IMG/VR virus record: IMGVR_UViG_3300027386_000002
Span: 1-39,409 of that record
Source of the DNA: a virus
Reading direction: 5' to 3' (one strand)
Length of the DNA: 39,409 bases
Below, piece by piece: positions 1 through 38,788 of the stretch; position 1 is the stretch's first letter; each line of letters begins with the position of its first letter. The notes under the pieces were generated by a model, which worked only from the letters and a program-made list of their open reading frames with translations, was not told where the DNA came from and did no database searches. Both the position numbers and the translations under genes were made by a program.

Positions 1-99
1 CTAACCAGCGGCGTGGATACGTGGATAGTGATGTGGATAAGCGGCGCTATTATGCCCGACTCGACGGGGGCTTGTTCCATATCCCTCGACAGCAATAGT
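1..99. repeat. Terminal 99-bp overlap identical to 39311-39409; circular or terminally redundant genome with a true unit of about 39310 bp
   Basis: The first 99 nt (ctaaccagcggcgtggatacg...cagcaatagt) recur exactly at the window end. An exact fixed-length overlap is typical of a circularised assembly. Confidence 0.9.
13..40 (+). repeat. Three direct GTGGATA heptamers upstream of conserved element copy A
   Basis: gtggatac at 13-20, gtggatag at 21-28 and gtggataa at 33-40. A related pair (gtggatgg, gtggataa) precedes copy C at 23340-23365. Confidence 0.7.
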
Positions 100-138
100 C
101 CCGTACGGGGCGGAGTAAGGGGCCTGTAATCCAGACCT
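55..138 (+). repeat. Conserved approximately 83-nt element, copy A (CCCGACTCGACGGGGGC-N14-TCGACAGCAATAGTCCCGTACGGNGCGGAGTAAGGGGCCT-N1-2-AATCCAGACCT)
   Basis: By manual alignment it is near-identical to 10457-10539 and 23379-23461. All three copies lie on the plus strand. Variation is confined to a 14-nt internal segment. Confidence 0.85.
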
Positions 139-170
139 ACCAGAGAGCTTGTGGTGAAGGGGCTTGGAGA

Positions 171-256
171 ATCGGCGCTACTGGGAGCGTATTGGGGGCG
201 TCCCTGTGAGATCGGCGCATAGGCCTTGTTGCTGGGCCTATTGGCCAGATCGGCGC
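171..256 (+). repeat. Three direct ATCGGCGC octamers spaced 40 and 38 bp apart
   Basis: atcggcgc occurs at 171-178, 211-218 and 249-256. Two of the three are preceded by G, which creates GATC. Confidence 0.7.
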
Positions 257-287
257 TTAGAATGGCGTACAGCGGCTCGTATCAAGA

Positions 288-791
288 GGCTGCGCTGCCG
301 GTTGTTTTGGCCCGTACGGGCTTATCGGTGATGCTGGCTCGCCGTCCTGCCCGCCCTTCCTAGTCTTGTGCCCCCTTCCCCTGCTGCCTCTTCGTCCGGC
401 GAAGGAAGAGAGCCTAAGCGGCTGTGCTGGTCGCTTTGTCTTGGTCGTGGCTGGTAGGGTAGTGGACTGGGGCCCGGTCTCCTGCGCTCCGCCTTGGCCT
501 TAGCGCCCGTCGTCTGTTGCCTTGGCCTTGTCCTACCTCCGTTGCGCCTATATCCCGTCGCGGCTCGGGTGGTGCGCCCCTTGCCGCTGACGGCCTAGTA
601 GGCCCTACGGGCTGTACGGGGGTAGGGGGCGGCACTCTAACGGTGTGAGCTTAGCGGGCCGCGCTCCCCTTTCCCGTTTCCCCCCAGCGCCGCCCTCGTG
701 CGTCGGAACGGGGCCGCTGGCCTCCCCGGCCCTCCTTCCCCCCATCGCCGCCCGGCATTGCTGCGTTCTCATCGGGCCGATGGGCAATGAG
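288..791 (+). repeat. Macro-repeat unit 1 (about 504 bp) of the A-depleted array
   Basis: It starts ggctgcgctgccggttgttttggcccgtacgggcttatcggtgatgctggctcgcc. The segment 437-640 aligns to 941-1144 with only 13 substitutions. Confidence 0.8.
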
Positions 792-1191
792 GGCTGCGCT
801 GACGGTTGTTTTGGCCCGTACGGGCTTGTCGGTGATGCTGGCTCGCCGTCCTGCCCACCCTTCCTAGTCTTGTGCCCCCGGCCCCTTCGGTCGTGGTGGT
901 GGTGGCGATGGCGGCTTGGAGCCGTGGCGACTTTGTTCTTTGTCTTGGTCGTGGCTGGTAGGGTAGTGGACTGCGGCCCGGTCTCCTACGCTCCGCCTTG
1001 GCCTTAGCGCCCGTCGTGTGTTGCCTTGGCGTTGTCCTACCTCCGTTGCGCCTATATCCCGTCGCGGCTCGGGTGGTGCGGCCCTTGCCGCTGACGGGCT
1101 GGTCGGCCCTACGGGCTGTACGGGGGCGAGGGGCGGCGCTCCAACGGCGGGAATCGTCGTAATTGGCTGGGTGGGCTGCGGCGTCGAGACA
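792..1191 (+). repeat. Macro-repeat unit 2 (about 400 bp)
   Basis: It has the same start motif (ggctgcgctgacggttgttttggcccgtacgggcttgtcggtgatgctggctcgcc) and the same internal order as unit 1. Confidence 0.8.
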
Positions 1192-1470
1192 GGCTGCGCC
1201 AACGGTCCTCTTGGCCCTACGGGCTTGGCGGTGGTGCTGGCTCGCCTTTCTGCCCACCCTTCCTAGTCTTGTGCCCCCGACCCCTTCTGTCGTGGTGGTG
1301 GTGATGGTGGGAGCATGGGAGCACAGTGGCTTTGTTCTCTGTCTTGGTCGTGGCGGGTAGGCCAGTGGCTTGGGGCCCGGTCTCCTGCGCTCCGCCTTAG
1401 CCGCTCGGCCCGTCGTGTGATGGCTGGGGCCTTGGCCTTGTGTAGTGCGCGGTGGCCTCCTTAGCGGGCG
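1192..1470 (+). repeat. Macro-repeat unit 3 (partial, more diverged)
   Basis: It starts ggctgcgccaacggtcctcttggccctacgggcttggcggtggtgctggctcgcc. It continues with the ccttcctagtcttgtgccccc and gtcttggtcgtggc blocks seen in units 1 and 2. Confidence 0.7.
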
Positions 1471-1720
1471 GCTGACGGTTCGGTATGATAGCGGTTGTTT
1501 TGGCCGCCTTGTCCGGGGGGTAGTCTCTTGGGCGCTCGTCGTAGTTGGCTGGGTGGACTCAGACGCCGCTGCGGCAGCGCTTCGCGGGCCTTCGCTGGGG
1601 CAATCGTAGTAGTTGGCTGGGTGGACTCAGGCGCCGCTGCGGCAGCGCTTCGCGGGCCTTCGCTGGGGGCGGCTGACGCGTCGGTATGATAGCGGTTCTC
1701 TTGGCCGCCCTGTCCGGGGG
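1469..1720 (+). repeat. Pair of 52-nt direct repeats about 200 bp apart (cggctgacgNNtcggtatgatagcggttNtNttggccgccNtgtccggggg)
   Basis: 1469-1520 and 1669-1720 differ at only a few positions. Confidence 0.75.
1536..1669 (+). repeat. Tandem duplication of a 68-nt unit, two copies
   Basis: The unit tcgtNgtagttggctgggtggactcagNcgccgctgcggcagcgcttcgcgggccttcgctgggg occurs back to back. A third partial copy lies at 1151-1190. Confidence 0.8.
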
Positions 1721-2501
1721 CTGTCGCCCACCCAACTGCGCTGCTCCCCCATCCCCCCGGGTACCTCCCCGTCCGCTGCTCGCCCCCCCCCGTGCTCTTC
1801 TGATGGGCCGTGTGCTCACCAGCGATGTGACGGGAGCGTACGCGATACTGGCTTGGATGTTGTTCGCGGGGGTCTGCGCGTCGTGTGCTTGTCCGGTGTG
1901 TGCCGTCTGCCCTGTCTCGGTATCGTCAGCTCATCGTCGCTGGTTTCCCGCGTCATTCTGTAGCGGCTCTGCTGCGTCGGTTGACGGGCCGTGTGCGTCC
2001 CAGCCCGCCCCGTGCGCTGTTCGGCCTTCGCTCGCTCCCCCGCTCGGCCTGTCCTTCCTCTCCGCACCGAAGGGCGGCACTGTTCGATCTGCGGTCACGG
2101 TGGGGTCGTGGCGGCCTCTCGTTCGTTGTTTTGCGCTGTGTCCGTCTGCGTCGGCGTCGGGCTGTTGTTGTGCATGCCTAACGGTGGTCGCCTCCTCTCC
2201 TTACGGTGATGGCTGCGTTGGCCGCCCGCTCCTGAGTTGCCAGCTTGAGGCCCCGTCTTGGTCGCTGGGTCCGTCTCTGCCCCCCCCCGTCCCCTCGCGT
2301 TCGGCCTCCTGCGATTGTGTGGGTTTTGCTTTGCCGAGCGTTCCTGTCCGTTTCTCGGGGGGGCCACCCCCCCAGTCCGCTGCTCCCCCTTCCCTTCCCC
2401 TCCTCCCCGTCCGCTGCTCCCCCCACCCCGATGGGGCTTCTTTTGCCGCTGCGCCGACGTGTGATGTGTGCCCTACGGGCTTAGCGGTAATGCTGGCTCG
2501 C

Positions 2502-2575
2502 GGGAGGGCTTCAGCGGCTCGCGCCATCGGTGCAGTTGCAAGGAGAGTCGGCGGTGATGTGGCGCTGCGCTGATG
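2502..2575 (+). repeat. Left copy of an approximately 75-nt direct repeat bracketing the AT-rich block
   Basis: gggagggcttcagcggctcgcgccatcggtgcagttgcaaggagagtcggcggtgatgtggcgctgcgctgatgg aligns with 2814-2888. Confidence 0.7.
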
Positions 2576-3059
2576 GAAAATGCTTACACGCTCCTCCAAT
2601 TTCCAATTTTCACATCATTTGCCTCGAAATCGGGGCTGAGCGTCGTGAAATCTTGACGGAGAGCCTTGTTTTCGCGACGGAGAGCCTTGAAAACCGTTCA
2701 AATTTGACGAGAAATCGCGTCAAAAAAAATTTCTGTCGGAATTTTTGGAGAGACGAGAAATCAACGCAGATTTGCCATGATCGCGTCAAAAAAATTTCTC
2801 ATAGTAAAGTTTTGGAGAGGGCTTCAGCGGCTCGTGCCATCGGTGATTTTGCAAAGAATGTCAACGGTAGCGTGGCACTGCGCTCAGGCGAGAAACAGAC
2901 GCGGCGCAGCGGGAAACTAAAACGGGAGCACGGGATTTAAAGAGAGGGAGCACGCGGGAGCATGGCGGAGCGGAGCATTGCTGAAATCGGGTCAGAAAAA
3001 AATTTATCGGAAGTGAAGCCCTAAACGCGTCCCGTCGTCGTCGCCACCAACCCGAACCA
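2576..3059. promoter_or_regulatory. AT-rich non-coding block with iteron-like repeats; candidate replication origin or regulatory region
   Basis: gaaatcgNgtcaNaaaaaaatttNt occurs 3 times (about 2714-2734, 2780-2800, 2988-3008), ttttggagag twice and gacggagagccttg twice. Composition drops sharply in GC relative to both flanks. Confidence 0.35.
2814..2888 (+). repeat. Right copy of the approximately 75-nt direct repeat
   Basis: ggagagggcttcagcggctcgtgccatcggtgattttgcaaagaatgtcaacggtagcgtggcactgcgctcagg is roughly three-quarters identical to 2502-2575. Confidence 0.7.
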
Positions 3060-3088
3060 ATTATACTTGACAGTCTCCATCAAGTCAA
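3060..3088 (-). promoter_or_regulatory. Near-consensus sigma70-type promoter (TTGACT-17 nt-TATAAT) firing toward lower coordinates into the non-coding region
   Basis: The minus strand reads tgccTTGACTtgatggagactgtcaagTATAATtgg. The -35 box is at 3088-3083 and the -10 box at 3065-3060. No ORF of 60 aa or more lies downstream on the minus strand. Confidence 0.6.
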
Positions 3089-3156
3089 GGCATCACGCAT
3101 GGCGTCAACCGTCGCATCTGTTGCCGTGGTATCCCTTGCCTTGTCGGCCTTCTCGG

Positions 3157-3909
3157 TTACACCACCAGCGTTTCTCGTATCGTCAGGGACGCATTAATCA
3201 GCTTGGAGAACCTCTCTTCGGCAATATTGAGTCCCCCTCCTCCTTCCTGTCCTCCCCCCAGTTGCCCATAGATCCACACATCGTCATCATTGACCATCAC
3301 CGTCCCATATTCGCCTGCTTCGAGCACCACCGTTTCAATCTCATCGCGCTGTCCATCCCTGAGCTTCTCCCACTGTATCTGCATCGTTCTCCAGACCCCG
3401 ATGGCGGCGGCTCCATCCTGCAGCCCTTCCCTTGTCGGCGCGAAGCCCAGCAGCGAGTTAAACACATTGACGCGTGCCGGTTGTGCGTTCAGCTCCACCA
3501 GCCTCCCCGTCACCACTCGGGCGCACTCCAGCCGTCCCCCCTCATCCGTTTGCGGGAACGCGATACGCACCTCATCGACAGCGCTCCTCGTCCGGACCGT
3601 AGCCACAAAGACGCGCCTTGAGTCATCGACCGTCAGGATGAGCGTTTCGATGATCCTGTTATTGTTGAGCAGCATCACCGTCGCGTCTCCCAGCAGGTTA
3701 CAGCCCACGATCCCGACGAAGTCGATCACGTTTCGCCCTCTCTTCAGCATCGTGGCCGTATAGACTCGTTGTTCATCGGCGTGCCGTGTGATCATCTTCC
3801 TTCTGAGGCTTGGCGTGGCCAGATTATCGGCCAGGCTGCCCGTAGCCAGCTCATTAGGCGTCAGCGTCACCCTTTGGAATGGGAAGACCGTACCAAAGGC
3901 CAGTGCCAT
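3157..3909 (-). CDS. Virion/tail structural protein (250 aa), paralog of the 37486-38256 product
   Basis: The track ORF starts at TTG 3927, whereas ATG 3909 has GGAG 8 nt upstream. The blocks MALAFGTVFPF, LRRKMIT, IDFVGIV, RLECARVVTGRLV and W..L...QRDEI align with MAISLATSFPF, LRRRLIT, INFVSII, RLETALIIAGELV and W..L...ERDEL of the paralog. Confidence 0.75.
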   Translation of the reverse strand: MALAFGTVFPFQRVTLTPNELATGSLADNLATPSLRRKMITRHADEQRVYTATMLKRGRNVIDFVGIVGCNLLGDATVMLLNNNRIIETLILTVDDSRRVFVATVRTRSAVDEVRIAFPQTDEGGRLECARVVTGRLVELNAQPARVNVFNSLLGFAPTREGLQDGAAAIGVWRTMQIQWEKLRDGQRDEIETVVLEAGEYGTVMVNDDDVWIYGQLGGGQEGGGGLNIAEERFSKLINASLTIRETLVV

Positions 3910-3925
3910 GTCATCATCTCCATAC

Positions 3926-3996
3926 AAAAAGGCCGCGCAACCATCTTCCTCTGACGTCTCTCCCCAGACACCATCGAGATAGAATTGCGCGGCCTT
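3926..3996 (-). terminator. Hairpin plus T5 run downstream of the capsid gene; possible attenuator or terminator
   Basis: The minus strand carries TTGCGCGGCC paired with GGCCGCGCAA (10 bp), followed by TTTTTG. The loop is long at about 44 nt. Confidence 0.4.
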
Positions 3997-4020
3997 GTAT
4001 CTTATCGAGCCGGAGCGTTA

Positions 4021-4971
4021 TCAGCTAACAGCGGCGGTGAACAGGAATCCCGCGTTCTGTTCGGTCACGTTGTGGTCGTAGTCCAGCCCCACATAGACCG
4101 CATCCGCTTCTGGGTTCTCGACCTTGTACTGGCGCACATAGCGATTACGCTGGTATTCGAAGGAGCGCCCGAACCCTATCTGCAGTGCTTGGTTCATCGC
4201 GGCGTTAGACATGCCCGCTTCTCTCCGGAAGACCAGGCAGTTATCCTGCCAGATCAGCTCGTTATCGGCGTCCGCGCCCTCGTTTGCTTCATCGAAGACC
4301 ATATCACCGACGAAGACGTTCTCGGGCGACAGCCACGTGAACAGCCCGGCGAACTGCTCGGTCGTCAGGTCCCCTTCTCGCACGTACTGGAAGCGGTTGA
4401 CGATCTTTGGGTTGCTCACCAGCGCCGTCCAGACGTTGCCGGCTAGAAGCACGGCGTTGGCCCTCATGCCGCACCCGATGAGCACCTGGAGTGCCGCGTC
4501 GTTGAGGTCGCTGATGGGGTCTCCGTTGTCGGCGTCCCACTTATTAGCCGGCACAGAGGTATAGTTAGCGTTGAACGCGCCAGCCGCAAAGCACTTATCG
4601 CGCGCATCGACCTCAGCCGAGATCATCAGTTGCCCCGTCATGGTCATGGTCATCGCTTCGGACGGGTCGAGCACCTCATCCATATCGAACATGGCGTGGT
4701 TGACATCGATCAGGTCATAGAGGCTGTGGTGGTCGAGGCTGTAGGGGTGGGGCTCCGGCACCCAGTGGCTGCGTTCGGCCGGCTCGAGGTAGGCCCTGGG
4801 GCCGGTATTGACGTGGCGCAGGTTCTCGGGCCGCATGATGTACACGCTGCTCTTTTTCTTCGTCACGTACTTGACGGGGAAGGGTCCGTTACGCACGGAC
4901 ATCGGGTTGTTGTAGGCCAGCGACAGATCGCTCAGTGGCCTACTTACATAGGTCGTGCCTTCGGCTGGCAT
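4021..4971 (-). CDS. Major capsid protein (316 aa), lambda gpE-like / HK97 fold
   Basis: AGGAG lies 8 nt upstream of the ATG. The gene follows the protease, scaffold and decoration genes. Its size and sequence character resemble the Phage_cap_E family, but homology could not be searched. Confidence 0.75.
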   Translation of the reverse strand: MPAEGTTYVSRPLSDLSLAYNNPMSVRNGPFPVKYVTKKKSSVYIMRPENLRHVNTGPRAYLEPAERSHWVPEPHPYSLDHHSLYDLIDVNHAMFDMDEVLDPSEAMTMTMTGQLMISAEVDARDKCFAAGAFNANYTSVPANKWDADNGDPISDLNDAALQVLIGCGMRANAVLLAGNVWTALVSNPKIVNRFQYVREGDLTTEQFAGLFTWLSPENVFVGDMVFDEANEGADADNELIWQDNCLVFRREAGMSNAAMNQALQIGFGRSFEYQRNRYVRQYKVENPEADAVYVGLDYDHNVTEQNAGFLFTAAVS

Positions 4972-4993
4972 AGTCTATTCTCCTATATGGCCG

Positions 4994-5368
4994 CTATCGT
5001 TCGAGGGTAAGGATCTGCGCTACTTCGCCGTTGGCCGCGCCACCGATGCACCTACCGATGCTGTTGGCGGTGGCCGCCGCGCCGTCGGATACGACCTTAG
5101 CGGCGTTGTTGGCGCGGACGAAGTGACCGTCCGCGATGGCCCCGGCCGCGGCCACGCGCACCGTCTGCGAGTGTCTCCAGTCGGCAATCGGCACCACATC
5201 ACCCGCGGCCCGGGGCGCCTCGTAGAAGACACCGTCGGGCTTGGCGTTGTTGCCCGTGGCGATCATGCGGCGGTTGGCCGAGATGTTGCAGAGGGTGAAG
5301 GCCTCAGCGGCGGCGGCAGCGCCCCCGGAGGCATAGCTGACATATACAACTCCAGAATCAAGGGCCAT
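4994..5368 (-). CDS. Head decoration / cement protein (124 aa), DUF2190-like
   Basis: It is a small Ala/Gly-rich protein encoded immediately upstream of the capsid gene. GAGGGG precedes the ATG. Confidence 0.55.
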   Translation of the reverse strand: MALDSGVVYVSYASGGAAAAAEAFTLCNISANRRMIATGNNAKPDGVFYEAPRAAGDVVPIADWRHSQTVRVAAAGAIADGHFVRANNAAKVVSDGAAATANSIGRCIGGAANGEVAQILTLER

Positions 5369-5371
5369 GGG

Positions 5372-5899
5372 TTAGGTTCCCCTCTGCCAGTCGGCCACAC
5401 CGATCTCTTCGGCCTCGTAGGCTTTGCGCTCGTCGTCTTTGAGTTCGGCGACGGCTTGGTTGTAGGCGTCCACGCGGTTGAGGGTCGGGTCTTCCTTGAC
5501 CAGCACGGCCACGCGTTCGCCGATCTTACCGCTGACGGATTCCGCGTCTTGGCTATCATCGTTGCCTTCTCTTTGCGATCCGTTCGTTTTCTGCGCGACC
5601 AGGCCGTCCGGCAACAGGCACCAGCTATCGTCGTTTTGGTCGGCCAGCTGTTTGCGTGCCTGGGCGCTGTCGGCTTTCTCGATCCGATCCATGATGGCAT
5701 CGAGCGAGGCCACCGGCACCGCGCCGCGCTCGGCGTGCTTGCTGAGCCTCTCGCGCGCTTGCACCAAAGCGGCCTCATGCTCGGCCTTATCGTTGGCCTG
5801 ACGCGACTCCACCAAGGCGGCAATGACGGCATCCACGGACACCTCTTCCGGAGCGATGCCGAGCATTTCGGCTACTTGCTTCCTCTGTTCTTCGTTCAT
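5372..5899 (-). CDS. Probable scaffolding protein (175 aa)
   Basis: It is acidic and looks helical, and it lies between the prohead protease and decoration genes. The call is positional. Confidence 0.5.
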   Translation of the reverse strand: MNEEQRKQVAEMLGIAPEEVSVDAVIAALVESRQANDKAEHEAALVQARERLSKHAERGAVPVASLDAIMDRIEKADSAQARKQLADQNDDSWCLLPDGLVAQKTNGSQREGNDDSQDAESVSGKIGERVAVLVKEDPTLNRVDAYNQAVAELKDDERKAYEAEEIGVADWQRGT

Positions 5900-5972
5900 G
5901 GTTTCCCCTTTGTTGGTGGGAAAGGGTTTACGGTAAAGATAGTTTCAATCCACGCCAACGCAAGCGAGGCGA

Positions 5973-6674
5973 CTAGGGTCTGAAAATAGAATCGGCAAAT
6001 CCCTTGTCAACAGCCATGCTGGCGGACATGTAGGTCTCTGCGGTCATCATGCGGCGGCACTGCAACACCGACAGGCCGGTCGACTCGGCATAGATGGAGG
6101 CCATCATGGCGTTCTTCTCCACGACGTATTCGGCCAGCGCGGTCGCTTTCTGGGCCACTTTCTTCAGGCCGTTCTCGTCGTAGTAGCCGTACGCATCAAG
6201 CGGGTATCGCACCTCGTGGATCATCATGGATCCCATGTCCGCAATCTGCCTTTGGTCGGCCAACTGCGTCAACAGGGTCGATCCGCTGGCGTCCATACCC
6301 TCCACCAGCGCATTGATCCTGCCGCCCTCCTGCTGATACATCTGCAGGCGCAGCCGGCAGCGTGCCGCCTCATCTATCTGGCCACCCGGCGAGTTGATAC
6401 GCAGCATCAGCTCGTTACCCGTGACACGGGCCATCTGCTCCTCGAACACGCCGTAGGTCATGTAGTTCGACTCACCGTAATAGCGCATCATATCGCCCAC
6501 CCTCTCGGAGACGAACGGGCCATAGATGAAGATGGTGTTCTCGGCGTACTCCCTTGGCCTAAAAGGCATGGGCCGGTCTTCGTCCCTCTCTTCGGACATC
6601 TCGGCCACGGCGCCCTTGTAGCAGGCGGCCCACAGCGCGGCGACTGGGTCTTTATTCTTCGGTTGGTTCGTCAT
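5973..6674 (-). CDS. ClpP/S49-like prohead maturation protease (233 aa)
   Basis: It carries the motifs INSPGG, GMDASGSTLL (serine nucleophile context) and MMIHEV (histidine). It overlaps the end of the portal gene. Confidence 0.8.
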   Translation of the reverse strand: MTNQPKNKDPVAALWAACYKGAVAEMSEERDEDRPMPFRPREYAENTIFIYGPFVSERVGDMMRYYGESNYMTYGVFEEQMARVTGNELMLRINSPGGQIDEAARCRLRLQMYQQEGGRINALVEGMDASGSTLLTQLADQRQIADMGSMMIHEVRYPLDAYGYYDENGLKKVAQKATALAEYVVEKNAMMASIYAESTGLSVLQCRRMMTAETYMSASMAVDKGFADSIFRP

Positions 6675-7965
6675 CGGATTCCTCGTTTGGTTGGTCGTCC
6701 GGCTGATCGATTGGCGGCTGTCTGGGTATGCCCTTCTCCACGAGCTTCATATCAGCCCTAAGCTGGGCCTCGAGGTCGTCGTCCGGGACGATGAAGCCAC
6801 CGCGCCCGAGGCGCTCGATGTGCTCGGCGATGCGAAAGACGCGGGTGGCGTCGAGGTTGGCCCACCGCATCAGCGGCCTAGGCGCCGCATCCCCGAAGTT
6901 GAAGGCCACCAGCTTCTTTATGATATCAATATTAATGGCATCGACCACCTCGTCGAGCAGCGAGCCGAGCACGTTGAACAGTATCTCGTAGAGGTCGGAG
7001 GACAAGGAGCGGTTGGCCGTTTCACTTTCAGACAGGTCGAGGATATGGCTGAACAGCGAGCGGCTGATCTCTAGGTTGTAGTACCGGAAGCGGCCCAGTA
7101 TGTCCACCTCCGGGCGGGCCGACTGCAAGTACTCGAGCTCGAGCCGGTCCTTGGGCAGCAGCAGGTAGGACGACTGATGGGAGGTCATGCGACTAAGCAG
7201 CCCACGGAAAACGTTGCGCTCCGCCAGAGAGACCTCTTCCTCGTAGCGTCCCACCGGCAGGGGCATCAGTTGCCGTCGCGTCCCCAGCAGGTCGGCGTAG
7301 AACAGTTGCAGCTTGGCGAACCAAGGGCGATAACAGGAGCGCAACAGGCTGCGGCCGCGGTGGCTGTCGCCGATGGAGTAGGGCGAGAAGTAGCAGAGCC
7401 GGTCGCGTAGCAGTGTTATCTGTTGGGGCATGTCGTTGTCGTCGTTGACCTGCTGGACGACACTCGTGACGTGGCCCCTATCGTCGTTAAATTCCTCGAT
7501 ACTGTTCTGCCACCGGAACTCAGTCGACAGGGTGTTAGCGCCGTCCATGAACGGATAGGCCAGCTCGTGGATCGAGAAGCCATGCTCCAGCGAGGTGAGC
7601 ATTTCCCTGAGCAGCTTGCGGAAGTTGGCGCGCGGGTTGGGGTCGACAGCGTCGTCGAGGCCCAACTCGTTGGCGACGAAGGAGCGGACCGTCTCGTCGC
7701 CACCCTCCAGCGTGAACGTCGAGCTGAGCAAAGGGGACTTGAGCAGCAGCAGGTCGGACGCCACCTGGCTGTCGTCGCGGGCCATGAACCCATAAATGAG
7801 ATTCGAGCGGCGACCGGCCAGACTACTGGTGTCGTAGTCCCCGAGGTTATCGTCTATAGGCGGTATCGGCGAGGCGTCGGCGAACGGTGCCCAAGCGATG
7901 GGGCTCAGGTCGTAGTCGTAATCACCTTGCGAGTAGAAGTTGCCCAGCGAGTTGAATAGTCCCAT
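6652..7965 (-). CDS. Portal protein (437 aa from ATG 7965)
   Basis: It is a large ORF directly upstream of the protease gene. The track start at 8016 is TTG, and alternative ATG starts lie at 8007 and 7965. ATG 7965 lies 8 nt after a TAAGTT -10-like box and avoids overlap with the divergent gene. Confidence 0.7.
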   Translation of the reverse strand: MGLFNSLGNFYSQGDYDYDLSPIAWAPFADASPIPPIDDNLGDYDTSSLAGRRSNLIYGFMARDDSQVASDLLLLKSPLLSSTFTLEGGDETVRSFVANELGLDDAVDPNPRANFRKLLREMLTSLEHGFSIHELAYPFMDGANTLSTEFRWQNSIEEFNDDRGHVTSVVQQVNDDNDMPQQITLLRDRLCYFSPYSIGDSHRGRSLLRSCYRPWFAKLQLFYADLLGTRRQLMPLPVGRYEEEVSLAERNVFRGLLSRMTSHQSSYLLLPKDRLELEYLQSARPEVDILGRFRYYNLEISRSLFSHILDLSESETANRSLSSDLYEILFNVLGSLLDEVVDAINIDIIKKLVAFNFGDAAPRPLMRWANLDATRVFRIAEHIERLGRGGFIVPDDDLEAQLRADMKLVEKGIPRQPPIDQPDDQPNEESDDEPTEE

Positions 7966-7969
7966 GGTG

Positions 7970-7998
7970 TTGAAACTTACAGATTCTTTCGCTAAAAT
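7970..7998 (+). promoter_or_regulatory. sigma70-type promoter TTGAAA-17 nt-TAAAAT for the packaging operon
   Basis: The -35 box is at 7970-7975 and the -10 box at 7993-7998. The ATG at 8006 lies 7 nt after the -10 box and has no SD, which implies a leaderless or near-leaderless mRNA. Confidence 0.55.
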
Positions 7999-8002
7999 AC
8001 AA
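7974..8002 (-). promoter_or_regulatory. Candidate divergent promoter TTGTAT-17 nt-TAAGTT for the head operon
   Basis: The minus-strand -35 box is at 8002-7997 and the -10 box at 7979-7974, followed by 8 nt and then ATG 7965. The match to consensus is weaker than for the plus-strand partner. Confidence 0.35.
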
Positions 8003-8005
8003 ACC

Positions 8006-8386
8006 ATGAGATTCAAGAGCGAGGCCGCGTTTCAGAAGCACGTCATAGCCATAGCCAAGCTGGGCGGCTGGGAGGTCTTCCATCAGGGGGACATGCGCCA
8101 CATCCTCTCGGGCGTGGGCTATCCCGACCTAACGCTCATCAGCCAGCGTGAGCCGCGCGTGATTTTCGCTGAGTTGAAGACGGACAAAGGCGAGAGGAGC
8201 GCGGAGCAGGTCAGATACGCCGCAGTAATCTCGTCGTTGGGCATCCGGGGCGTCGAGTACTATCTATGGAGGCCCAAGCACCTTGAGAAGATCAAGCAGG
8301 TGCTCAAAGGAACGGGCGATCCGGAGCGAAGACGACGCTTCACCGCCACGCTGGGACTCATGCTAAAGGAGAGCAACAAGAGATGA
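8006..8386 (+). CDS. VRR-NUC family PD-(D/E)XK nuclease (126 aa)
   Basis: It carries GYPDLTLI...VIFAELKTDKGERSAEQ, the classic VRR-NUC D...E.K...Q pattern. The track ORF begins upstream at 7940, but ATG 8006 fits the promoter. Confidence 0.75.
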   Translation: MRFKSEAAFQKHVIAIAKLGGWEVFHQGDMRHILSGVGYPDLTLISQREPRVIFAELKTDKGERSAEQVRYAAVISSLGIRGVEYYLWRPKHLEKIKQVLKGTGDPERRRRFTATLGLMLKESNKR

Positions 8387-8668: not shown

Positions 8669-9682
8669 ATGGCAATAAAGGTCAACGCATCGGGAGGGGA
8701 GCACGACCTGTGGCTGCCCGGCGACGAGCGCATCGAGGACTTGGAGCTGTTCACCAGCCAGCAGTTGGGCATGAACATCACGCCGGAGATGGTCCTTTCC
8801 CGCAGCAAGAAGAACCAGCAGTACAAGCGGGCCACGGCGCTGACCCGGCAGCAGGTCGACACCATCCTGTCGGTCAAGGAGCACCGGCGCACCGTCGTCC
8901 GGGGAGCGCACAGCCTGGGCAAGTCCGTGGCCATAGGCGTCTTGGGCTGTTGGTGGCTGACGCGCAAACGCGACAACATGGTGCTGATGGCGTCCGCCAA
9001 AGAGGATCAGGTGTCCAAGGTGCTGTTCCCCAACATGTTGGGCCACTACGTCCGGGCGTTCGGTAGGCGCGGCAAGCTGGGCGCACTGCAGGTCTATCCC
9101 GACCAGCTCGCCCATCCCAAGTGGTGCGCCATAGGCATCAGCGGCCAGAACACCGAGGCTTTCGCCAGCTACCACCCGCACGGCGACGGCGAGGTCTTGC
9201 TGGTAATCGATGAGGGCAGCGCCATGACCGACGCGCTGGCGCAGGCGGCCGAGGGGCTGATAAGCAGCGAGGCGGCGCGGATAGTGGTGCTGGGCAACCC
9301 GCTCAACACCCAGCCGCGCGATCCCTTCCGCGCCTTGTTCACCGACAAGCAGTACAATAGGATTCACTGGAAGACCAGCGAGCATCCCAACATCCAGCAT
9401 CAGAGGCCGATCTATCCTGGTTGCATCTCCCAAAAATGGATCAACGAGATGATTGAACGGCACGGGTTAGAGTCCGACCAGGTTCAGGCGCGTTGCTTCG
9501 GGGAGTTCCCGCCCATCAAGACCGACTCCGAGAAGGGCAAGCTCATCGACGTGAATGCCGTTGCCCAGTCATCGGGCTTGACCGTCGAGGAGATATTGGC
9601 CGAGATGCACAGCGAGGAACCGGAAGTAAAGGACCTGTTCCATTTCGTGGGGCAGGGACACACCTACTCACAGGGGGTATGA
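8669..9682 (+). CDS. Terminase large subunit, ATPase domain only (337 aa)
   Basis: It has Walker A VRGAHSLGKS and Walker B VLLVIDEGS, plus a linker-like motif FGEFP. The ORF stops about 60 aa later, with no RNaseH-like nuclease domain. Confidence 0.7.
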   Translation: MAIKVNASGGEHDLWLPGDERIEDLELFTSQQLGMNITPEMVLSRSKKNQQYKRATALTRQQVDTILSVKEHRRTVVRGAHSLGKSVAIGVLGCWWLTRKRDNMVLMASAKEDQVSKVLFPNMLGHYVRAFGRRGKLGALQVYPDQLAHPKWCAIGISGQNTEAFASYHPHGDGEVLLVIDEGSAMTDALAQAAEGLISSEAARIVVLGNPLNTQPRDPFRALFTDKQYNRIHWKTSEHPNIQHQRPIYPGCISQKWINEMIERHGLESDQVQARCFGEFPPIKTDSEKGKLIDVNAVAQSSGLTVEEILAEMHSEEPEVKDLFHFVGQGHTYSQGV

Positions 9683-10500
9683 TGAGACTACTATCGAACG
9701 ACGAGATCAAGGCCGGGTGTCAGGCGGCCAACATCATCCAGATGAGAGGTTGGGGCATCCGCGCCAACAGTCCCTTGGTCGGCAAGGGCGCGTTGGTCGA
9801 GGTGAAGGTGCAGGGCGGTGAGTGGTCCAACGCCAAAACGGGCGAGTCCGGGCAGATATGGAACATAGAGGCTTCATTCGTTCAGGAGATAGACGACCGC
9901 TCCGAGATCATGAACGTGCTCGACCGGATCATGGGCGAGGGGCCGATAGGGTTGTATGAGGATATATTCGCTCAGGGGTTTCGCAACCAGTTCGCCGCGA
10001 TATGCTGCCAAGGCAACATGCCAAGGGCACGGACGTTGATGCCGGCGTTCAAGCCCGAGGCGGAAGCATCGACCAGCGCCGCCAAGCGCGGATGCGCCAA
10101 CAGGGAGACCGAGGTAGCGGTGGAGTTTCAGGACATAATGAGCAATGCGACGACGAAGTGGTCGCCCTTCCAGCGACGCAACTATGCCAGGCCGAGGGAC
10201 AAGGCCGCGATCCACGGGCGCGAGTTGGCCAAGGCTACTACCATAGCCGTGGCGACGCATCCGACGCAACAGGGGATTAGTAGGATCAACCGCAGCAAAG
10301 GGGAGCAGCCCGCTCTGGATGCGCTATTGGCCGGTTGTTGGATACTCAATCGGGAGATCCAGAGGAGGTCGTTCAGGCCAAAGGCGGGGCCCAGAGCCGA
10401 CGAGCGTGGGGCATCACTGGACAGCGCCACGATGGCGCGATCGGTAGCAGAATCATCCCGACTCGACGGGGGCATCCTCCGTTTTCCTCGACAGCAATAG
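9679..10500 (+). CDS. Hypothetical protein (273 aa)
   Basis: Its start forms an ATGA overlap with the preceding stop. The N-terminal 110 aa or so look globular (KGALVEVKVQGGEWSNAKTGESGQIWNIEA has a weak OB-fold flavour). The C-terminal half is low complexity. The last 20 codons are read out of conserved element copy B. Confidence 0.5.
   Translation: MMRLLSNDEIKAGCQAANIIQMRGWGIRANSPLVGKGALVEVKVQGGEWSNAKTGESGQIWNIEASFVQEIDDRSEIMNVLDRIMGEGPIGLYEDIFAQGFRNQFAAICCQGNMPRARTLMPAFKPEAEASTSAAKRGCANRETEVAVEFQDIMSNATTKWSPFQRRNYARPRDKAAIHGRELAKATTIAVATHPTQQGISRINRSKGEQPALDALLAGCWILNREIQRRSFRPKAGPRADERGASLDSATMARSVAESSRLDGGILRFPRQQ
10421..10437 (+). repeat. Left copy of a perfect 17-bp direct repeat (acagcgccacgatggcg) flanking element copy B
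   Basis: The identical 17-mer recurs at 10542-10558. It contains the mini-hairpin cgcca-cga-tggcg. Confidence 0.9.
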
Positions 10501-10539
10501 TCCCGTACGGCGCGGAGTAAGGGGCCTCAATCCAGACCT
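10457..10539 (+). repeat. Conserved approximately 83-nt element, copy B
   Basis: It aligns with copies A and C. It lacks the upstream GTGGATA heptamers and sits inside a 104-nt segment (10438-10541) bounded by the 17-bp direct repeats. Confidence 0.85.
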
Positions 10540-10541
10540 GA

Positions 10542-10558
10542 ACAGCGCCACGATGGCG
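10542..10558 (+). repeat. Right copy of the 17-bp direct repeat
   Basis: acagcgccacgatggcg is identical to 10421-10437. Confidence 0.9.
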
Positions 10559-10635
10559 TGGTTGTAAGTTTAGCTTGGCTTAGGCGGCCAAAAAGAGGGC
10601 CGCCACGCCATAGCTTGAGTTATAGGATAGCACAC

Positions 10636-10687
10636 GGGCCGCCCTCGTCGCGCTGACGCGCGTTTTCGGGCGGCCCTTCTCTTTGTT
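10636..10687 (+). terminator. Rho-independent-type terminator after the packaging block
   Basis: The stem GGGCCGCCC / GGGCGGCCC encloses an inner cgcg hairpin and is followed by TTCTCTTTGTT. Confidence 0.5.
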
Positions 10688-11063
10688 CGGACGTCTTAGA
10701 TTTGAACTTAGGTAGTAGTCGCGTTTTGCCCCTCCCCACCCCCCGGGCCTTCCATTCTTGATAATCGTTATTTAAGGAGTAAAAACAGCAGATAGGGAGC
10801 GGGTGGTTGGTGGCGGGTTGGTCTGGCGTGGTTGGGCTTGGGTGCTGGAGAGCGCACAGTCTGGTGTGTGTAGTGGGCGGGTGCGCTGGCAGTCTCTACC
10901 GTCTTGTGTAGTTGTCCCCTTTAGGTGTTACCTTCTGTTCCCTTTGGGTATCAGTGCGCGTGCCGGTTGTGGCCGCGTGGCTGGGTGCATGTTTTGCACG
11001 TTGTAAGCAATTGTCTTGCAACGAGTTATGGGCAAGTTAATTGTTTCACATGGAACAATAGTT

Positions 11064-12382: not shown

Positions 12383-12798
12383 AGACTCGCATGAGATGGA
12401 ACTGCCAAAGCGACGGCTGCTTTTTCGACAAGAAGGTCGCAAGACTCGAAGACTTTGATGACTGCTTTGGTGGCAAGATAGGCATGACGGACGTCGATGG
12501 ACTGGTCGAGCGCAACGGGCACTTCCTGTTCGTTGAATGGAAAGCACCGGAAGAGAAGCTGCCAATGGGCCAACGCATTCTATTTGAGCAACTGACGAAG
12601 TTGTCAGACAAGGTCGTCGTCGTAGTGATACATGGTCATTCATCCATGAGCCAAGGATCGCACCCAGTTCAATACCAGACAGCCTACAAGGGAAGATGGT
12701 CGGCAGTGGAAGAAACCAACATAGACCGGCTAAGAGGATTCCTAAAGCGGTGGTACACGTGGGCAGACAACCAAGGAGACTTTCAATGGCACATGTAG
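12379..12798 (+). CDS. PD-(D/E)XK nuclease, VRR-NUC-like (139 aa)
   Basis: Its ATG forms an ATGA overlap with the upstream stop and GAAGGAGG lies upstream. The pattern GMTDVDGLVERNGHFLFVEWKAPEEKLPMGQ fits D...E.K...Q. Confidence 0.6.
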   Translation: MKTRMRWNCQSDGCFFDKKVARLEDFDDCFGGKIGMTDVDGLVERNGHFLFVEWKAPEEKLPMGQRILFEQLTKLSDKVVVVVIHGHSSMSQGSHPVQYQTAYKGRWSAVEETNIDRLRGFLKRWYTWADNQGDFQWHM

Positions 12799-13313
12799 CT
12801 AAAAACTCGGGCAACAATGAATGGTACACGCCACCAGAGATAATCGAGGCGGCGCGTAGGACGATGGGGAGGATAGACCTTGATCCGGCTTCAAACGAAG
12901 TAGCGCAACGCTGGATAGATGCGGGGAGCTACTACACGAAAGAGGACGACGGATTGCTCTTGTCGTGGGGAGGGCGCGTCTGGTTGAATCCGCCATACGA
13001 AGCGAAGCTGATCGGCCAGTTCGTGGACAAGCTGATCTCCTCAACTGGCATAGAGCAGGCCATCACCTTGACCAACAATGCCACCGAGACCAAGTGGGGT
13101 CAGAAGATATTGGCCAGCGCCAACGCCATCTGCTTCCCAAGCCAGCGCGTCAAGTTCCTCCGCCCCGAAGGCGAAAAGGGCAGCCCATTGCAGGGACAAA
13201 TGATAGCTGGTTTTGGCGTGGACAGAGTGCGCTTTGAGCAGGAGTTTGCACCACTGGGCGCGGTAGTCTTCACCTTGGTTCACTTGGGTAACAGTGATGT
13301 TTCCTTTAGGTAA
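12786..13313 (+). CDS. Phage Dam-type DNA N6-adenine methyltransferase (175 aa)
   Basis: It carries NEWYTPPEII, DLDPAS and WLNPPY (the catalytic NPPY), which match the phage N6A methylase family layout. Confidence 0.85.
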   Translation: MAHVAKNSGNNEWYTPPEIIEAARRTMGRIDLDPASNEVAQRWIDAGSYYTKEDDGLLLSWGGRVWLNPPYEAKLIGQFVDKLISSTGIEQAITLTNNATETKWGQKILASANAICFPSQRVKFLRPEGEKGSPLQGQMIAGFGVDRVRFEQEFAPLGAVVFTLVHLGNSDVSFR

Positions 13314-13838: not shown

Positions 13839-14108
13839 ATGGTTGATCCAGTAAGGCGCGGCGACGGCTATAGCAAGGGAGATGGCAACGGCAGCGGAAG
13901 GGGATGGGGAGACGGTAGCGGATTCGGTTCGGGATTCGGTTCGGGATTTGGCAACGGCGAGGGCAACGGAGGAGGTTGGGGAGACGGTAGCGGGAGCGAT
14001 GACGGTAGCGGTAGCGGTAGCGGTTCGGGATTTGGCAACGGCGAGAGCGACGGAGGAGGTTGGGGAGACGGTAGCGGGAGCGGGAGGGATGACGGTAGCG
14101 GAGACTAA
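13839..14108 (+). CDS. (Gly-X)n repeat protein with W/F at X positions (89 aa), cassette copy 1
   Basis: The sequence is MVDPVRRGDGYSKGDGNGSGRGWGDGSGFGSGFGSGFGNGEGNGGGWGDG... The SD is gcaggag. Its paralog lies at 15786-16145. Confidence 0.65.
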   Translation: MVDPVRRGDGYSKGDGNGSGRGWGDGSGFGSGFGSGFGNGEGNGGGWGDGSGSDDGSGSGSGSGFGNGESDGGGWGDGSGSGRDDGSGD

Positions 14109-15785: not shown

Positions 15786-16145
15786 ATGGAAGGTTCCGAG
15801 CGCAGAGAAGCAATGCTAAACGGCGACGGCGACGGCGAGGGCAACGGGAGCGGTTGGGGTAACGGCTATGGAGACGGCAGCGGTTGGGGCAGCGGATACG
15901 GCGACGGATGCGGCAACGGATGCGGCAACGGATGCGGCAACGGGATAGGCGCAGGCAACGGGCGCGGTGACGGCTATGCCAGTGGCGCAGGAGACGGTCA
16001 CGGAGCCGGTTGGGGTAAAGGCGCAGGAGAAGGCGACGGCAAGGGAGACGGCTACGGAGAAGGCAACGGGTGGGGAGACGGATACGGCAGCGGCAGCGGC
16101 ATCAGCAACAGCATCAGCAACCCAAGGAGAGACAACGTTGAATAG
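15786..16145 (+). CDS. (Gly-X)n repeat protein with W/Y/C at X positions (119 aa), cassette copy 2
   Basis: The sequence contains GDGDGEGNGSGWGNGYGDGSGWGSGYGDGCGNGCGNGCGNG...GWGDGYGSGSG. Confidence 0.65.
   Translation: MEGSERREAMLNGDGDGEGNGSGWGNGYGDGSGWGSGYGDGCGNGCGNGCGNGIGAGNGRGDGYASGAGDGHGAGWGKGAGEGDGKGDGYGEGNGWGDGYGSGSGISNSISNPRRDNVE
15906..15941 (+). repeat. Perfect 3 x 12-nt tandem repeat (ggatgcggcaac) inside the Gly-X gene
   Basis: Three exact copies encode GCGN three times. Confidence 0.9.
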
Positions 16146-17408: not shown

Positions 17409-17603
17409 GGGGCGGTGGCTCGACATCCGGGGCGGTGGCTTCGTCTAGTCCGCCAGTCATCGCCCCGGCCTCATTGAAGCGACGGGCACCGCAGATGGGT
17501 CGTTCTGGCTGCATTTTCTTTCCGGGGTGGAAACGCCCCGGCCTCATTGAAGCAAGCAAGCAAGCACCAACGAACTGGCGAGGGTCCACCTGTGCTCTTG
17601 CCT

Positions 17604-23322: not shown

Positions 23323-23339
23323 TCGTATATTAGTTTCAA

Positions 23340-23365
23340 GTGGATGGTATGGTATTGTGGATAAG
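23340..23365 (+). repeat. GTGGAT(A/G) heptamer pair upstream of element copy C
   Basis: gtggatgg at 23340-23347 and gtggataa at 23358-23365. The arrangement is the same as upstream of copy A. Confidence 0.65.
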
Positions 23366-23378
23366 CAACCCTGTTATG

Positions 23379-23461
23379 CCCGACTTGACGGGGGCATATT
23401 CCATTTCCATCGACAGCAATAGTCCCGTACGGCGCGGAGTAAGGGGCCTCAATCCAGACCT
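23379..23461 (+). repeat. Conserved approximately 83-nt element, copy C
   Basis: It aligns with copies A and B. It ends 23 nt before the tail-fibre ATG and 9 nt before its AAGGAGA SD. Confidence 0.85.
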
Positions 23462-23484
23462 AAAAGGCAAAAGGAGAACGTACC

Positions 23485-36731: not shown

Positions 36732-37486
36732 ACCAGTATCTCCGTGAAGGTGAAGTCGACGTCCGAGCGCAGTCCAGCCCGCTCCGTGCCGCTGATGGCC
36801 ACCGAGCCCATGCGCCAGTCGCCGCGCTCTATCTCGAACATGAGGATGGGAAGCGACGCCCATTGCTCGATGAGCTGTTGGTCGGCGGCAGCCGCGTCCA
36901 AGGCCACGTAGCGGAAGACGGAGTACTCGCCCTGGCGGATGGGCGGCGCATAAGGGTCGACGACGCGGGAGCGGTTCTGGCGGCGCTCGAGCGAGCCGCG
37001 TATCTCGCGCCCGAGCTGCTGTACTTGGCCGGGCTGGACGAAGCCGACGACGGTGCGGAAGGAGCGGGGCTGGGCTATCTGGTAGCGGATGGTCCGGAGG
37101 TCTCTGGTCTGTGTGGCCTCGTCAACGCGCAGGGAGGGGATGCCGGAAAGGTCGAGCTGGACGATGGGGACGGTCTCTTCCACGGCACCGGTGCTGCTGC
37201 GGAGGCGCACGGCGACGGCCTGCGCGGACAGCCGGTAGAACAGGGAGGCGATGGCGTTGATGGGCCGGTCGGTGGTTGACAGGTGCTCTATGTTCCACGT
37301 GATGGCGTTGGCTACGTCCAGGCCGGAGGTGTAGAAGCGCAGCAGCGGGTCGAAGTTGGCCAGGTTCTCCTTGACGGACGGCTCCTCCCCATCGACGGTC
37401 TCGGTCAAGGAGCCGCTGGACAGGGTCGAGGTGACGACACTAAAGGCCCGGTCCGGGATGAACGCGCGGGGGTAGTGGTCGGCCAT
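36728..37486 (-). CDS. Tail structural protein (252 aa), possibly a distant paralog of its neighbour
   Basis: Its start forms a TGATG overlap with the upstream stop. It has a similar length and beta-rich character. Confidence 0.65.
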   Translation of the reverse strand: MADHYPRAFIPDRAFSVVTSTLSSGSLTETVDGEEPSVKENLANFDPLLRFYTSGLDVANAITWNIEHLSTTDRPINAIASLFYRLSAQAVAVRLRSSTGAVEETVPIVQLDLSGIPSLRVDEATQTRDLRTIRYQIAQPRSFRTVVGFVQPGQVQQLGREIRGSLERRQNRSRVVDPYAPPIRQGEYSVFRYVALDAAAADQQLIEQWASLPILMFEIERGDWRMGSVAISGTERAGLRSDVDFTFTEILV

Positions 37487-38256: not shown

Positions 38257-38353
38257 GGATTCTCTGTCCTGTTAGAGGTTCCTCTAATATAATGAGTGAT
38301 TTAGAACAGAAAAGGAGCGAAACAGGGTGACAAGGCTGCAAGAGAGGCGCGAA

Positions 38354-38429
38354 TTTTATCAGTTTTCGTCGATTTTGGCGATGTTTTGAGAGAATTCGGC
38401 CATCTTTTTGGCCAAAATATCGCCGTTTT
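38354..38429. other. Helically phased T4-5 tracts (predicted intrinsic DNA bend)
   Basis: T tracts occur at 38354, 38363, 38373, 38384, 38404 and 38426, with the first four spaced 9-11 bp apart. They lie upstream of the tail operon start. Confidence 0.5.
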
Positions 38430-38759: not shown

Positions 38760-38788
38760 TTGCTGGATTACGTTAGATTACGTAGTAT
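38760..38788 (+). promoter_or_regulatory. Candidate sigma70-type promoter TTGCTG-17 nt-TAGTAT for the zinc-finger gene
   Basis: It abuts the right arm of the dyad element. Its spacer contains gattacgt twice. Confidence 0.4.

Follow-up and report, generated by a model that had tools for sequence, protein, structure and literature searches.

Why would a tightly packed phage genome hold on to 2.4 kb of DNA in which no gene can be recognized and from whose plus strand most of the adenine is gone? The question is posed by positions 139–2575 of the IMG/VR virus record IMGVR_UViG_3300027386_000002, which we analyzed over its full length of 39,409 nt (hereinafter the window) and in which an earlier note, made from the letters alone, had drawn attention to this A-poor block. 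We compared the block with those of three related phages for which the relevant part of the genome was obtained (L020, L019 and L014; major capsid protein [MCP] 60–67% identical to that of the window phage). The block is non-coding in all four phages, and together with an AT-richer, origin-like cluster (2576–3056) and a conserved upstream element (41–140) it makes up a cis-acting module of ~3.1 kb whose layout recurs in the relatives (Table 1). We accordingly describe the feature as a non-coding repeat array of a putative origin region, the new part of which is an A-depletion that is conserved without conservation of sequence.

On the plus strand, 139–2575 consists of 8.0% A, 32.7% C, 34.5% G and 24.9% T, compared with 21.7–21.8% A in the remaining genome. 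Its 194 A residues stand against 529 expected (z=–16.5), which bears out the depletion claimed by the note, if not its slightly low figure of ~6% A, and it is the most base-depleted 2.4-kb stretch in the genome. A sliding count of base composition, one of the checks that the note had proposed, confirmed the depletion over 301–2520 (0–10 A per 60 nt) and found it to be only mild at the left edge of the proposed interval (7–14 A per 60 nt over 139–300). The maximum-likelihood limits of the block are 288–2533, within which A falls to 7.1% on the plus strand (equivalently, T to 7.1% on the minus strand), with the first GGCTGCGCT repeat unit starting at 288. Internally, the block is pieced together from patches rich in G/T and patches rich in C/T; the local product of G and C contents lies below that of shuffled sequences in all four blocks (z=–7.6 in the window; –5.9, –5.6 and –2.9 in the relatives) but not in coding controls. 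A-poverty alone is not special: a second A-poor stretch of the plus strand, at 33200–34100 (A 3.6–6%), has strong 3-base periodicity and corresponds to an E/R-rich low-complexity domain (ERRRRE-type repeats, ~300 aa) of a 1198-aa open reading frame (ORF) on the minus strand (30985–34581), for whose product no family match was found. Because this second stretch is plain coding sequence, it is A-poverty without coding that sets the block apart. A genome-wide mutational bias was rejected as the cause, since the four-fold sites of plus-strand genes (A 18.6%, T 7.4%) have the opposite skew.

The note had also taken the region to be non-coding, had seen no coding signature in the substitutions between its repeat units and had explained its many overlapping ORFs as by-products of a stop-poor composition; all of this is upheld and strengthened by independent scores. 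The Fourier period-3 signal over 1–3156 is 1.8–3.8 times the median, against 14–76 times in real genes of the window, and a codon-usage log-odds score that picks up 37 genes elsewhere accepts no ORF in this interval. The relatives' blocks likewise lack the period-3 signal, scoring 1.1–3.3 against 11–35 in their own genes. Searches of the largest block ORFs against Pfam returned no significant match (one weak match was far below threshold), and the 295-aa ORF at 1686–2573 has a single match among 1.84 billion representative proteins, namely the same ORF in a strain variant. Moreover, the C9 tract at 2280–2288 is polymorphic in natural populations, and in the two assemblies that carry C8 this ORF is frameshifted. 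That the block encodes low-complexity proteins rich in Pro, Arg, Ala and Cys (plus strand) or hydrophilic products of a U-poor message (minus strand) accordingly deserves hardly any credence, even though gene callers have placed ORFs here (the 295-aa one in several contigs, and ORFs of 240 and 449 aa in L014) and the other A-poor stretch of the window is a genuine coding domain: besides the missing periodicity, codon usage and homologs, spacings that cannot be divided by 3 (68 nt and 313 nt) occur among the repeats. A practical consequence is that spurious proteins of 240–450 aa are now being annotated in these blocks. Homologs of the two small secreted-protein genes that occupy the equivalent slot in two further relatives (L011/L012) were also considered as hidden occupants of the block, and tblastn found nothing.

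The relatives' non-coding blocks are 1.6–1.8 kb long (L020, 1–1790, A 10.5%; L019, 106–1830, A 9.1%; L014, 4180→2540 on the minus strand of the locus, A 7.4%). The helicase gene has the A-poor strand as its sense strand in each of the four phages, and this strand reads towards the iterons described below. Beyond this the blocks differ: the G:C ratio ranges from 0.64 to 1.33, with the window and L020 having about equal amounts of the two, L019 being C-rich (C 44%, G 28%) and L014 being G-rich (G 39%, C 29%) and starting with a G/T-only tract. No alignment between blocks was obtained with blastn at ordinary thresholds, and a sensitive search recovered islands only, among them a stretch of ~150 nt in which the window and L020 are 72% identical and another one that L019 shares with L014. 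At 53.6 bits, the best island exceeds the maximum of 31 reached in shuffled controls, and positions 1831–1854 of the window are identical to L020 1005–1028 at 24/24 nt. The unit motif of the window's internal repeats also occurs inside the three other blocks, its core (GCGCyGACGG...hairpin...CGGTGnTGCTGGCTC) being present in four copies in the window and in one or two in each relative, and a CTTCTTTTG..GCTGCGC motif is common to the window and L020. No dominant short motif of the Chi or primase-site kind accounts for the blocks, as none is common to all of them and the enrichments are modest. Since the blocks barely align and differ in G:C, what persists is the A-depletion itself, plus a few short motifs, and base composition as such seems to be maintained. 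That tightly packed phages spend 4–6% of their DNA on such a block, and keep its composition while its sequence drifts, points to a function for which the composition of one strand is what matters; such a function would go unnoticed in searches by homology or covariance as well as in gene finding.

A GGCTGCGCT-type motif marks the end of each of the four blocks and is followed by an AT-richer cluster. In L014 and L019 this comprises tandem 20-nt iterons (CGCGGCATTTGCryCGAAAT; six in L014 and ~11–13 in L019, or 11.4 by Tandem Repeats Finder), followed by A9T4 and the motif G8-ATTATAA-G10, beside the 3′ end of a gene for a VapE-like primase-helicase. The window cluster, whose G+C content drops to 43–45% at 2601–2900 against 60% for the whole genome, contains one copy of the relatives' iteron (CATTTGCCTCGAAATCG, at 2616), several other short repeat families, three dispersed copies of a 22-nt sequence (GAAATCGsGTCArAAAAAA(A)TTT) and A7–A8 tracts; its flank has colinear 10–14-mers in common with that of L020. 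Iterons, A-tracts and proximity to a helicase gene make up the anatomy expected of an iteron-type origin, and judging from its sequence we infer that the cluster is a candidate replication origin. Cumulative GC skew was uninformative as an origin locator, because G exceeds C along the entire plus strand.

The G-tract motif, of which a G8-N9-G8 variant stands beside the repeats of L020, brings up a rival explanation, namely a role of the module in packaging or at the genome ends, in which the block would go into the capsid or the cell before or after all other DNA, for example as an expendable leader that is free of restriction sites or rich in Chi-like sequences. A layout of G-tract, AT-rich spacer and G-tract resembles that of herpesvirus pac1, non-coding repeat regions lie near the genome ends of several phages (e.g., T5 and T7), and in the relatives the module follows the terminase genes. 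We nonetheless find such a role distinctly improbable: the window has no G-tract motif, tandem 20-nt iterons beside a primase-helicase gene are typical of origins, and the ends of the window are only a 99-nt assembly overlap, the HiFi contigs of relatives being circular or concatemeric.

On its other side the block begins, as the note had it, directly after copy A of a conserved element of ~100–140 nt, which occurs three times in the window (copy A, 1–140; copy B, 10457–10542; copy C, 23325–23464). Copy C ends 20 nt before the Shine-Dalgarno site and ATG of the tail-fibre gene. A homolog of the element lies directly upstream of the A-poor block in L019 (16–110 of that locus); it does not retain the hairpins predicted for the copies in the window. 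Upstream of copies A and C there are GTGGATA repeats, among them TGTGGATAA, the exact complement of the E. coli DnaA-box consensus; its only exact matches are those at 32–40 and, upstream of copy C, at 23356, and with one mismatch allowed the count is not above chance, which leaves the site as a lead at most.

The position of the module differs between the genomes. In L014 it comes after the terminase-side operon and before the replication genes, and the same layout probably holds for L019 and L020; at that slot the window has only element copy B with a 190-nt G/T-rich, A-poor stretch. Conversely, in L011/L012 the capsid gene is directly followed by a homolog of the structural-module gene 37486–38256, where the window has ~5.7 kb extra, made up of a paralog of that gene (3157–3927), the 3.1-kb non-coding module, a zinc-finger gene and an AT-rich promoter region. 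The module thus moves as a unit. As to these neighbors, the gene at 3157–3927 (minus strand) beside the module is a 28%-identical paralog (E=1e-28) of the conserved gene at 37486–38256 (minus strand), and L014 likewise has two genes of this kind. The zinc-finger gene (38814–39314, plus strand) codes for a 166-aa protein with three CGNR/FCS-like zinc fingers, has atypical codon usage and a partial match to phrog_1271, annotated as HNH endonuclease, and is absent from this position in the relatives; the AT-rich region that precedes it (38257–38813) contains a 34-nt inverted repeat (38596–38629/38730–38763).

What, then, could a block of this kind do? The first suggestion of the note, a very long structured RNA, found no support. 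Minimum free energies compared with dinucleotide shuffles gave z~0 on both strands of the window block, and the mean folding z of the relatives' three blocks was –0.65 to +0.27. The plus-sense RNA of 1700–2450 (751 nt) folds worse than all 20 shuffles (z=+2.48), its minus-sense counterpart being average (z=+0.23); a general avoidance of RNA structure was rejected as an explanation, as the deficit is confined to this interval and absent in the relatives. The BLASTN and Rfam checks that the note had called for returned nothing for the block: there was no Rfam match in 1–3300 (gathering threshold and E≤1; models for GOLLD, ROOL and OLE included), and blastn found no match of 1–3300 in GenBank phages or of 1–3160 in PLSDB plasmids. 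No alignable RNA core was found between the blocks beyond the short islands.

These results bear on a related explanation that does without a fold, namely that the block is the gene for a long A-poor plus-sense RNA (~2.3 kb), running from the conserved element to ~2440 and acting, for example, as a sponge or decoy for RNA-binding factors or nucleases. An A-less RNA would lack AUG, stop codons and Shine-Dalgarno sites and offer few sites to A-specific endoribonucleases. Speaking for it are the conserved element directly upstream in the window and L019, which by its place before the tail-fibre gene has the orientation of a plus-strand expression signal; the terminator-like hairpin and T-tract that close the block, with a motif partly common to L020; the co-orientation of the block with the downstream early and replication genes in the four phages; and the abundant long non-coding RNAs known from the transcriptomes of phage ICP1 and of the PLE satellites of Vibrio cholerae. 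Still, we consider it unlikely, given that there is no excess folding stability, no Rfam match and only short islands of alignment, that sequence turnover is too fast for a defined fold, that an untranslated transcript with C-rich patches would be a target of Rho unless antiterminated, and that element copy B lacks promoter-like repeats nearby.

The same susceptibility to Rho could itself be the function, if the block is a transcriptional insulator in which Rho stops read-through from the upstream operon before it reaches the origin, or which only antiterminated polymerase passes, thereby timing origin activation. The relatives' block does lie between the end of the terminase-side operon and the iterons, the plus-sense RNA has few start signals and no Shine-Dalgarno sites, C-rich and G-poor patches are present in the window at 660–760, 1741–1800 and 2341–2460 (and the L019 block as a whole is C-rich), and 1700–2450 of the window is less structured than shuffled sequence. 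Against these stand the G-rich block of L014 with its G/T-only start, the absence of a structure deficit in the relatives, and the fact that Rho termination zones need neither 2 kb nor A-depletion, which leave this role quite unlikely.

A different kind of answer would be that the composition is a by-product in weakly constrained filler or repeat DNA, brought about by strong selection to avoid restriction sites and palindromes or by an asymmetry of mutation that is local and strand-specific (from single-strand exposure near an origin or from transcription). A strand without one base of a complementary pair can contain no palindrome with A or T and no site that needs A on both strands. In keeping with this, GC-only hexamer palindromes are scarce throughout these genomes (observed/expected 0.34 in the window, 0.44–0.56 in relatives) and scarcer still inside the blocks (0.15 and 0.33–0.34, respectively), with non-palindromic GC hexamers at ~0.9–1.0, which suggests heavy restriction pressure on this phage family; the G/T-rich and C/T-rich patches are, locally, non-self-complementary alphabets; and the samples come from marine sponges. 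Sponge symbionts are rich in restriction systems. As for the mutational variant, T>A with G≥C on a strand is said, in accounts credited to Lobry 1996 and to Francino and Ochman, to be a signature of the leading or non-transcribed strand.

The repeats inside the block speak to this explanation as well. The note's internal repeats were recovered (units spaced by 504 and 399 nt, a 68-nt tandem duplication and 66-nt repeats), and they evolve rapidly: duplication, gene conversion and indels are fast, with a natural variant lacking one 68-nt tandem copy and gene conversion among the copies evident in strain variants. Mutability is highest at A sites. A comparison of the three repeat copies has A lost six times and gained five times, with 11 of 34 polarized changes involving A, and 20 of the 43 differences between copies 1 and 2 involve A, although it makes up 8% of the bases. 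With losses about equal to gains and many changes at A, A sites turn over fast around a low equilibrium, as expected either from selection that disfavors A or from mutation pressure directed locally at A. A-specific mutagenesis by a diversity-generating retroelement was rejected, as no reverse transcriptase domain was found among the larger ORFs scanned, the copies differ at all bases, and A gains match losses. All considered, an origin of the composition as a by-product is rather doubtful. The block has 6.2 palindromic 6-mers per kb, no lower than several coding regions of normal composition (4.3–5.9 per kb), and thus restriction avoidance alone does not require the loss of A; deamination asymmetry predicts C-depletion, yet the A-poor strand of L019 is 44% C; the four-fold sites have the opposite A/T skew; and the devotion of such a share of a size-constrained genome to the block in at least four lineages, with the same neighbors and orientation, calls for a function. 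If restriction pressure on unconstrained DNA is nevertheless the cause, the block would show that pressure free of coding constraints.

The alternative that the note had offered to its RNA, an array acting in cis at the level of DNA, fits better than a structured RNA, the block being the larger part of a module with iterons and A-tracts. Within this frame, the reading that we favor tentatively, as possible though well short of probable, is that the block assists the origin in cis and in a strand-specific manner, possibly as a stretch of stable RNA:DNA hybrid or of single-stranded DNA; we infer that such an accessory would work through single-stranded nucleic acid and not through a fixed sequence. 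In the mechanism that we envisage, transcription would pass through the core of the origin and on into the block, starting in the window at the sigma70-type promoter 3088→3060. The resulting RNA would be poor in U and have few start or stop codons, and its hybrid with the A-poor DNA strand would be free of weak rU:dA pairs. A persistent R-loop or opened zone beside the origin would then expose the G-run-rich opposite strand as a loading place for the phage helicase or primase, and the repeated GCTGCGC...TGCTGGCTC units could be protein-binding sites within the opened zone. The promoter, which the note had described as near-consensus and pointing into the block, does match at 11 of 12 positions and is the only such site in 3.4 kb, with 0.5 expected in shuffles. 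Nearest-neighbor energies (Sugimoto RNA/DNA and SantaLucia DNA tables in Biopython) put the difference between minus-sense hybrid and DNA duplex at –0.16 to –0.27 kcal/mol per bp in the blocks of the four phages, against –0.055 to –0.074 outside them (standard deviation 0.04–0.05); the minus-sense hybrid is thus 2–4 standard deviations more favorable than the genome background, with which the plus-sense hybrid is level. G4-type G-run motifs occur on the strand that would be displaced (minus) in three of the four blocks.

Taken further, the block could represent a new type of cis element for which composition counts and the sequence itself does not, a kilobase-scale strand almost without A (giving a U-less antisense RNA or a T-less displaced strand) that would make a long, stable R-loop or single-stranded zone for the strand-specific loading of the replication machinery; this step we regard as doubtful. 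Were it right, the element would be a viral, prokaryotic counterpart of switch regions or of the mitochondrial control region, with an A/T in place of a G/C asymmetry. If the block does open or regulate an origin, it would amount to a new origin architecture and provide a compositional signature for origins in uncultured phages.

Several observations weigh against an R-loop accessory of the origin. The stability of the hybrid follows directly from the poverty in U and is therefore not independent evidence, and the ordinary sense strands of minus-strand genes reach –0.13 to –0.18 kcal/mol, two thirds of the effect. The same promoter scan found no equivalent minus-sense promoter in L019, L020 or L014; both the conserved element upstream and the orientation shared with the downstream genes speak for transcription in the plus sense. 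Only L019 has a positive GC skew on the strand that would be displaced, that of L014 being negative and those of the window and L020 ~0. The window has its single copy of the relatives' iteron and a primase-helicase gene 16 kb away, and an RNA primer would have no obvious use, since a primase is encoded by the phages themselves. In the closest analog (see below), the non-coding region (NCR) of PLE satellites, most of the sequence is dispensable for replication (PMC7145576). Taken together, these points make the case for an R-loop weak.

The note had known of no described phage element with this composition, and our searches of the literature, GenBank phages and PLSDB agree; in particular, the literature on adenine-poor or strand-asymmetric non-coding phage regions yielded no description of one. 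The closest described analog that we found is the PLE NCR (Barth et al. 2020, PMC7145576; 10.1101/2020.03.12.988147), which is ~2.7–3 kb long, has four repeat families and carries an iteron origin with a poly-A tract at one end, no function being assigned to its non-origin parts (PMC7145576). Like the window block, it is a kilobase-scale non-coding region with several repeat families in a small mobile genome; unlike it, it has no sequence or protein homology to the module, depends on an initiator of the RepA_N type and not on a VapE/D5-type primase-helicase, and, as far as a comparison by description goes, has no reported strand-specific base depletion. The iteron origins of lambdoid phages, P4 (ori plus crr), SaPI/PICI elements and theta plasmids resemble the module in their tandem 19–22-bp repeats, AT-rich or A-tract segments and position near an initiator or primase-helicase gene; they differ in spanning 0.1–0.5 kb and in having no kilobase-scale flank depleted in a single base, and the window departs from the classical form in having its iteron once only and its primase gene at a distance. 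The lambda origin depends on nearby transcription, and P4 has a second, distant cis site made of repeats (crr).

R-loop zones such as immunoglobulin switch regions, ColE1 RNA II/ori, the conserved sequence blocks of the mitochondrial control region and T4 oriF/oriG are, like the block, non-coding and strand-asymmetric. Such zones are transcribed from a flanking promoter and have G-runs on one strand, switch regions and the mitochondrial control region being repetitive and kilobase-scale; all of those named except the switch regions are linked to replication initiation. However, they are defined by a G-rich non-template strand, whereas the conserved trait of the block is A-depletion and the sign of its GC skew varies. 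GOLLD, ROOL and the ~800-nt RNA of ICP1 are comparable as long non-coding phage stretches, possibly highly transcribed, but GOLLD and ROOL have conserved, covarying structures and Rfam models, in contrast to a block that matches none and has no excess stability.

Table 1. Features of the non-coding module and of related sites in the window (positions in the window).
Position	Strand	Feature	Remark
13–40	plus	Three tandem GTGGATA repeats; the third is TGTGGATAA at 32–40	Just upstream of element copy A
41–140	plus	Conserved element copy A, upstream module boundary; invariant boxes TCGACAGCAATAGT and AAGGGGCCT..AATCCAGACCT	
165–260	plus	Transition segment with three (G)ATCGGCGC repeats ~40 nt apart	Mildly A-depleted only
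288–2533	plus	Core A-poor non-coding block	Composition, limits, no coding signal
289–650, 793–1152, 1192–1450	plus	Repeat unit of ~340–500 nt, three diverged copies	
289–342, 793–846, 1192–1245, 2448–2501	plus	Unit motif GCTGCGCyGaCGG ... GGCCC(GTAC/TAC)GGGCTT ... CGGTGnTGCTGGCTCGC	
1454–1519, 1655–1720	plus	66-nt repeat pair	Flanks 68-nt tandem duplication 1524–1659
1831–2052	plus	Islands common with L020: CGGGAGCGTACGCGATACTGGCTT (1831–1854), TGCCCTGTCTCGGT, GAGCTyATCGTCGCT	
2280–2288	plus	Polymorphic C9 tract	C8 in natural variants
2421–2446	plus	Weak hairpin then CTTCTTTTG, plus-strand terminator-like site, right end of block	
2504–2571, 2817–2884	plus	68-nt direct repeat pair, 81% identical, bracketing the AT-rich core	
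2576–3056		AT-richer origin-like cluster	GC 43–55%
3060–3088	minus	Sigma70-type promoter TTGACT-17-TATAAT, pointing through the origin-like cluster into the block	11/12 match
10457–10990	plus	Element copy B, hairpins and 190-nt G/T-rich A-poor stretch (10800–10990), miniature of the module	After terminase genes
19451–21427	plus	DUF3854-D5_N primase-helicase gene	

The genome that carries the module is complete: the first and last 99 bases of the record are identical, which indicates a circularly assembled genome of ~39.3 kb. Its minus strand encodes, at 3157–8016, a Mu-type portal, a ClpP-like prohead protease and the HK97-type MCP, along with more structural genes elsewhere; the plus-strand genes include a split large terminase, a Dam-like methyltransferase, a Dda-like helicase, the DUF3854-D5_N primase-helicase and the tail fibre. 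Contigs 99.6–100% identical to it are present in at least ten assemblies, and a marine-sponge microbiome study lists two of the runs behind them; the metagenome runs concerned include SRR8092756, SRR8092710 and SRR8092709. Cultured phages are distant (MCP identity at most 27%); the relatives, several of which are circular HiFi contigs, were reached through homologs of the capsid protein and helicase (MCP 60–69% and helicase 47–54% identical). A search of viral, metagenome and genome collections for further related loci, made with the MCP (as single protein and as alignment) and with alignments of VapE, yielded none that was confirmed. Scans of IMG/VR for exact matches to the unit motif and to two of the conserved element's boxes returned nothing, the iteron pattern had one match, which lies inside a coding region and was judged to be chance, and a tRNA scan found nothing.

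Several minor observations were made along the way. The contig of L014/L015 (ERZ21830300 ctg711470c) is a 67-kb 'circular' HiFi contig with ~1.5 copies of a ~43-kb genome and is hence a concatemer; the HiFi data set behind ERZ21830300 also includes the L018 and L019 genomes. The large terminase of the window (8669–10500, plus strand) is seemingly split into adjacent ORFs of 337 and 273 aa, with terminase-family matches confined to the first. A ~56-nt GGN-rich repeat, with 17 copies over 13860–14095 and 15822–16111 (plus strand), probably encodes Gly/Asp/Ser/Trp-rich repeat proteins, and a 175-nt repeat in four diverged copies (24331–26620, plus strand) lies within the tail-fibre gene of 1293–1306 aa. 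In the gap before the helicase gene, 17422–17480 (plus strand; GGGGCGGTGGCTCGACATCCGGGGCGGTGGCTTCG) matches the Rfam family CRISPR-DR16 at 35.6 bits, just at the gathering score, and may be a chance direct repeat or hairpin. An adenine methyltransferase is encoded in every phage of the set fetched with its early region (the window and L017–L020), in three different families: MT-A70 in L017/L018, N6_N4_Mtase in L019/L020, and the window gene at 12786–13313. Two further relatives' genes code for DpdA, of 7-deazaguanine modification (L012, 1–460), and for a PAPS-reductase-like protein (L020, 5315–6109).

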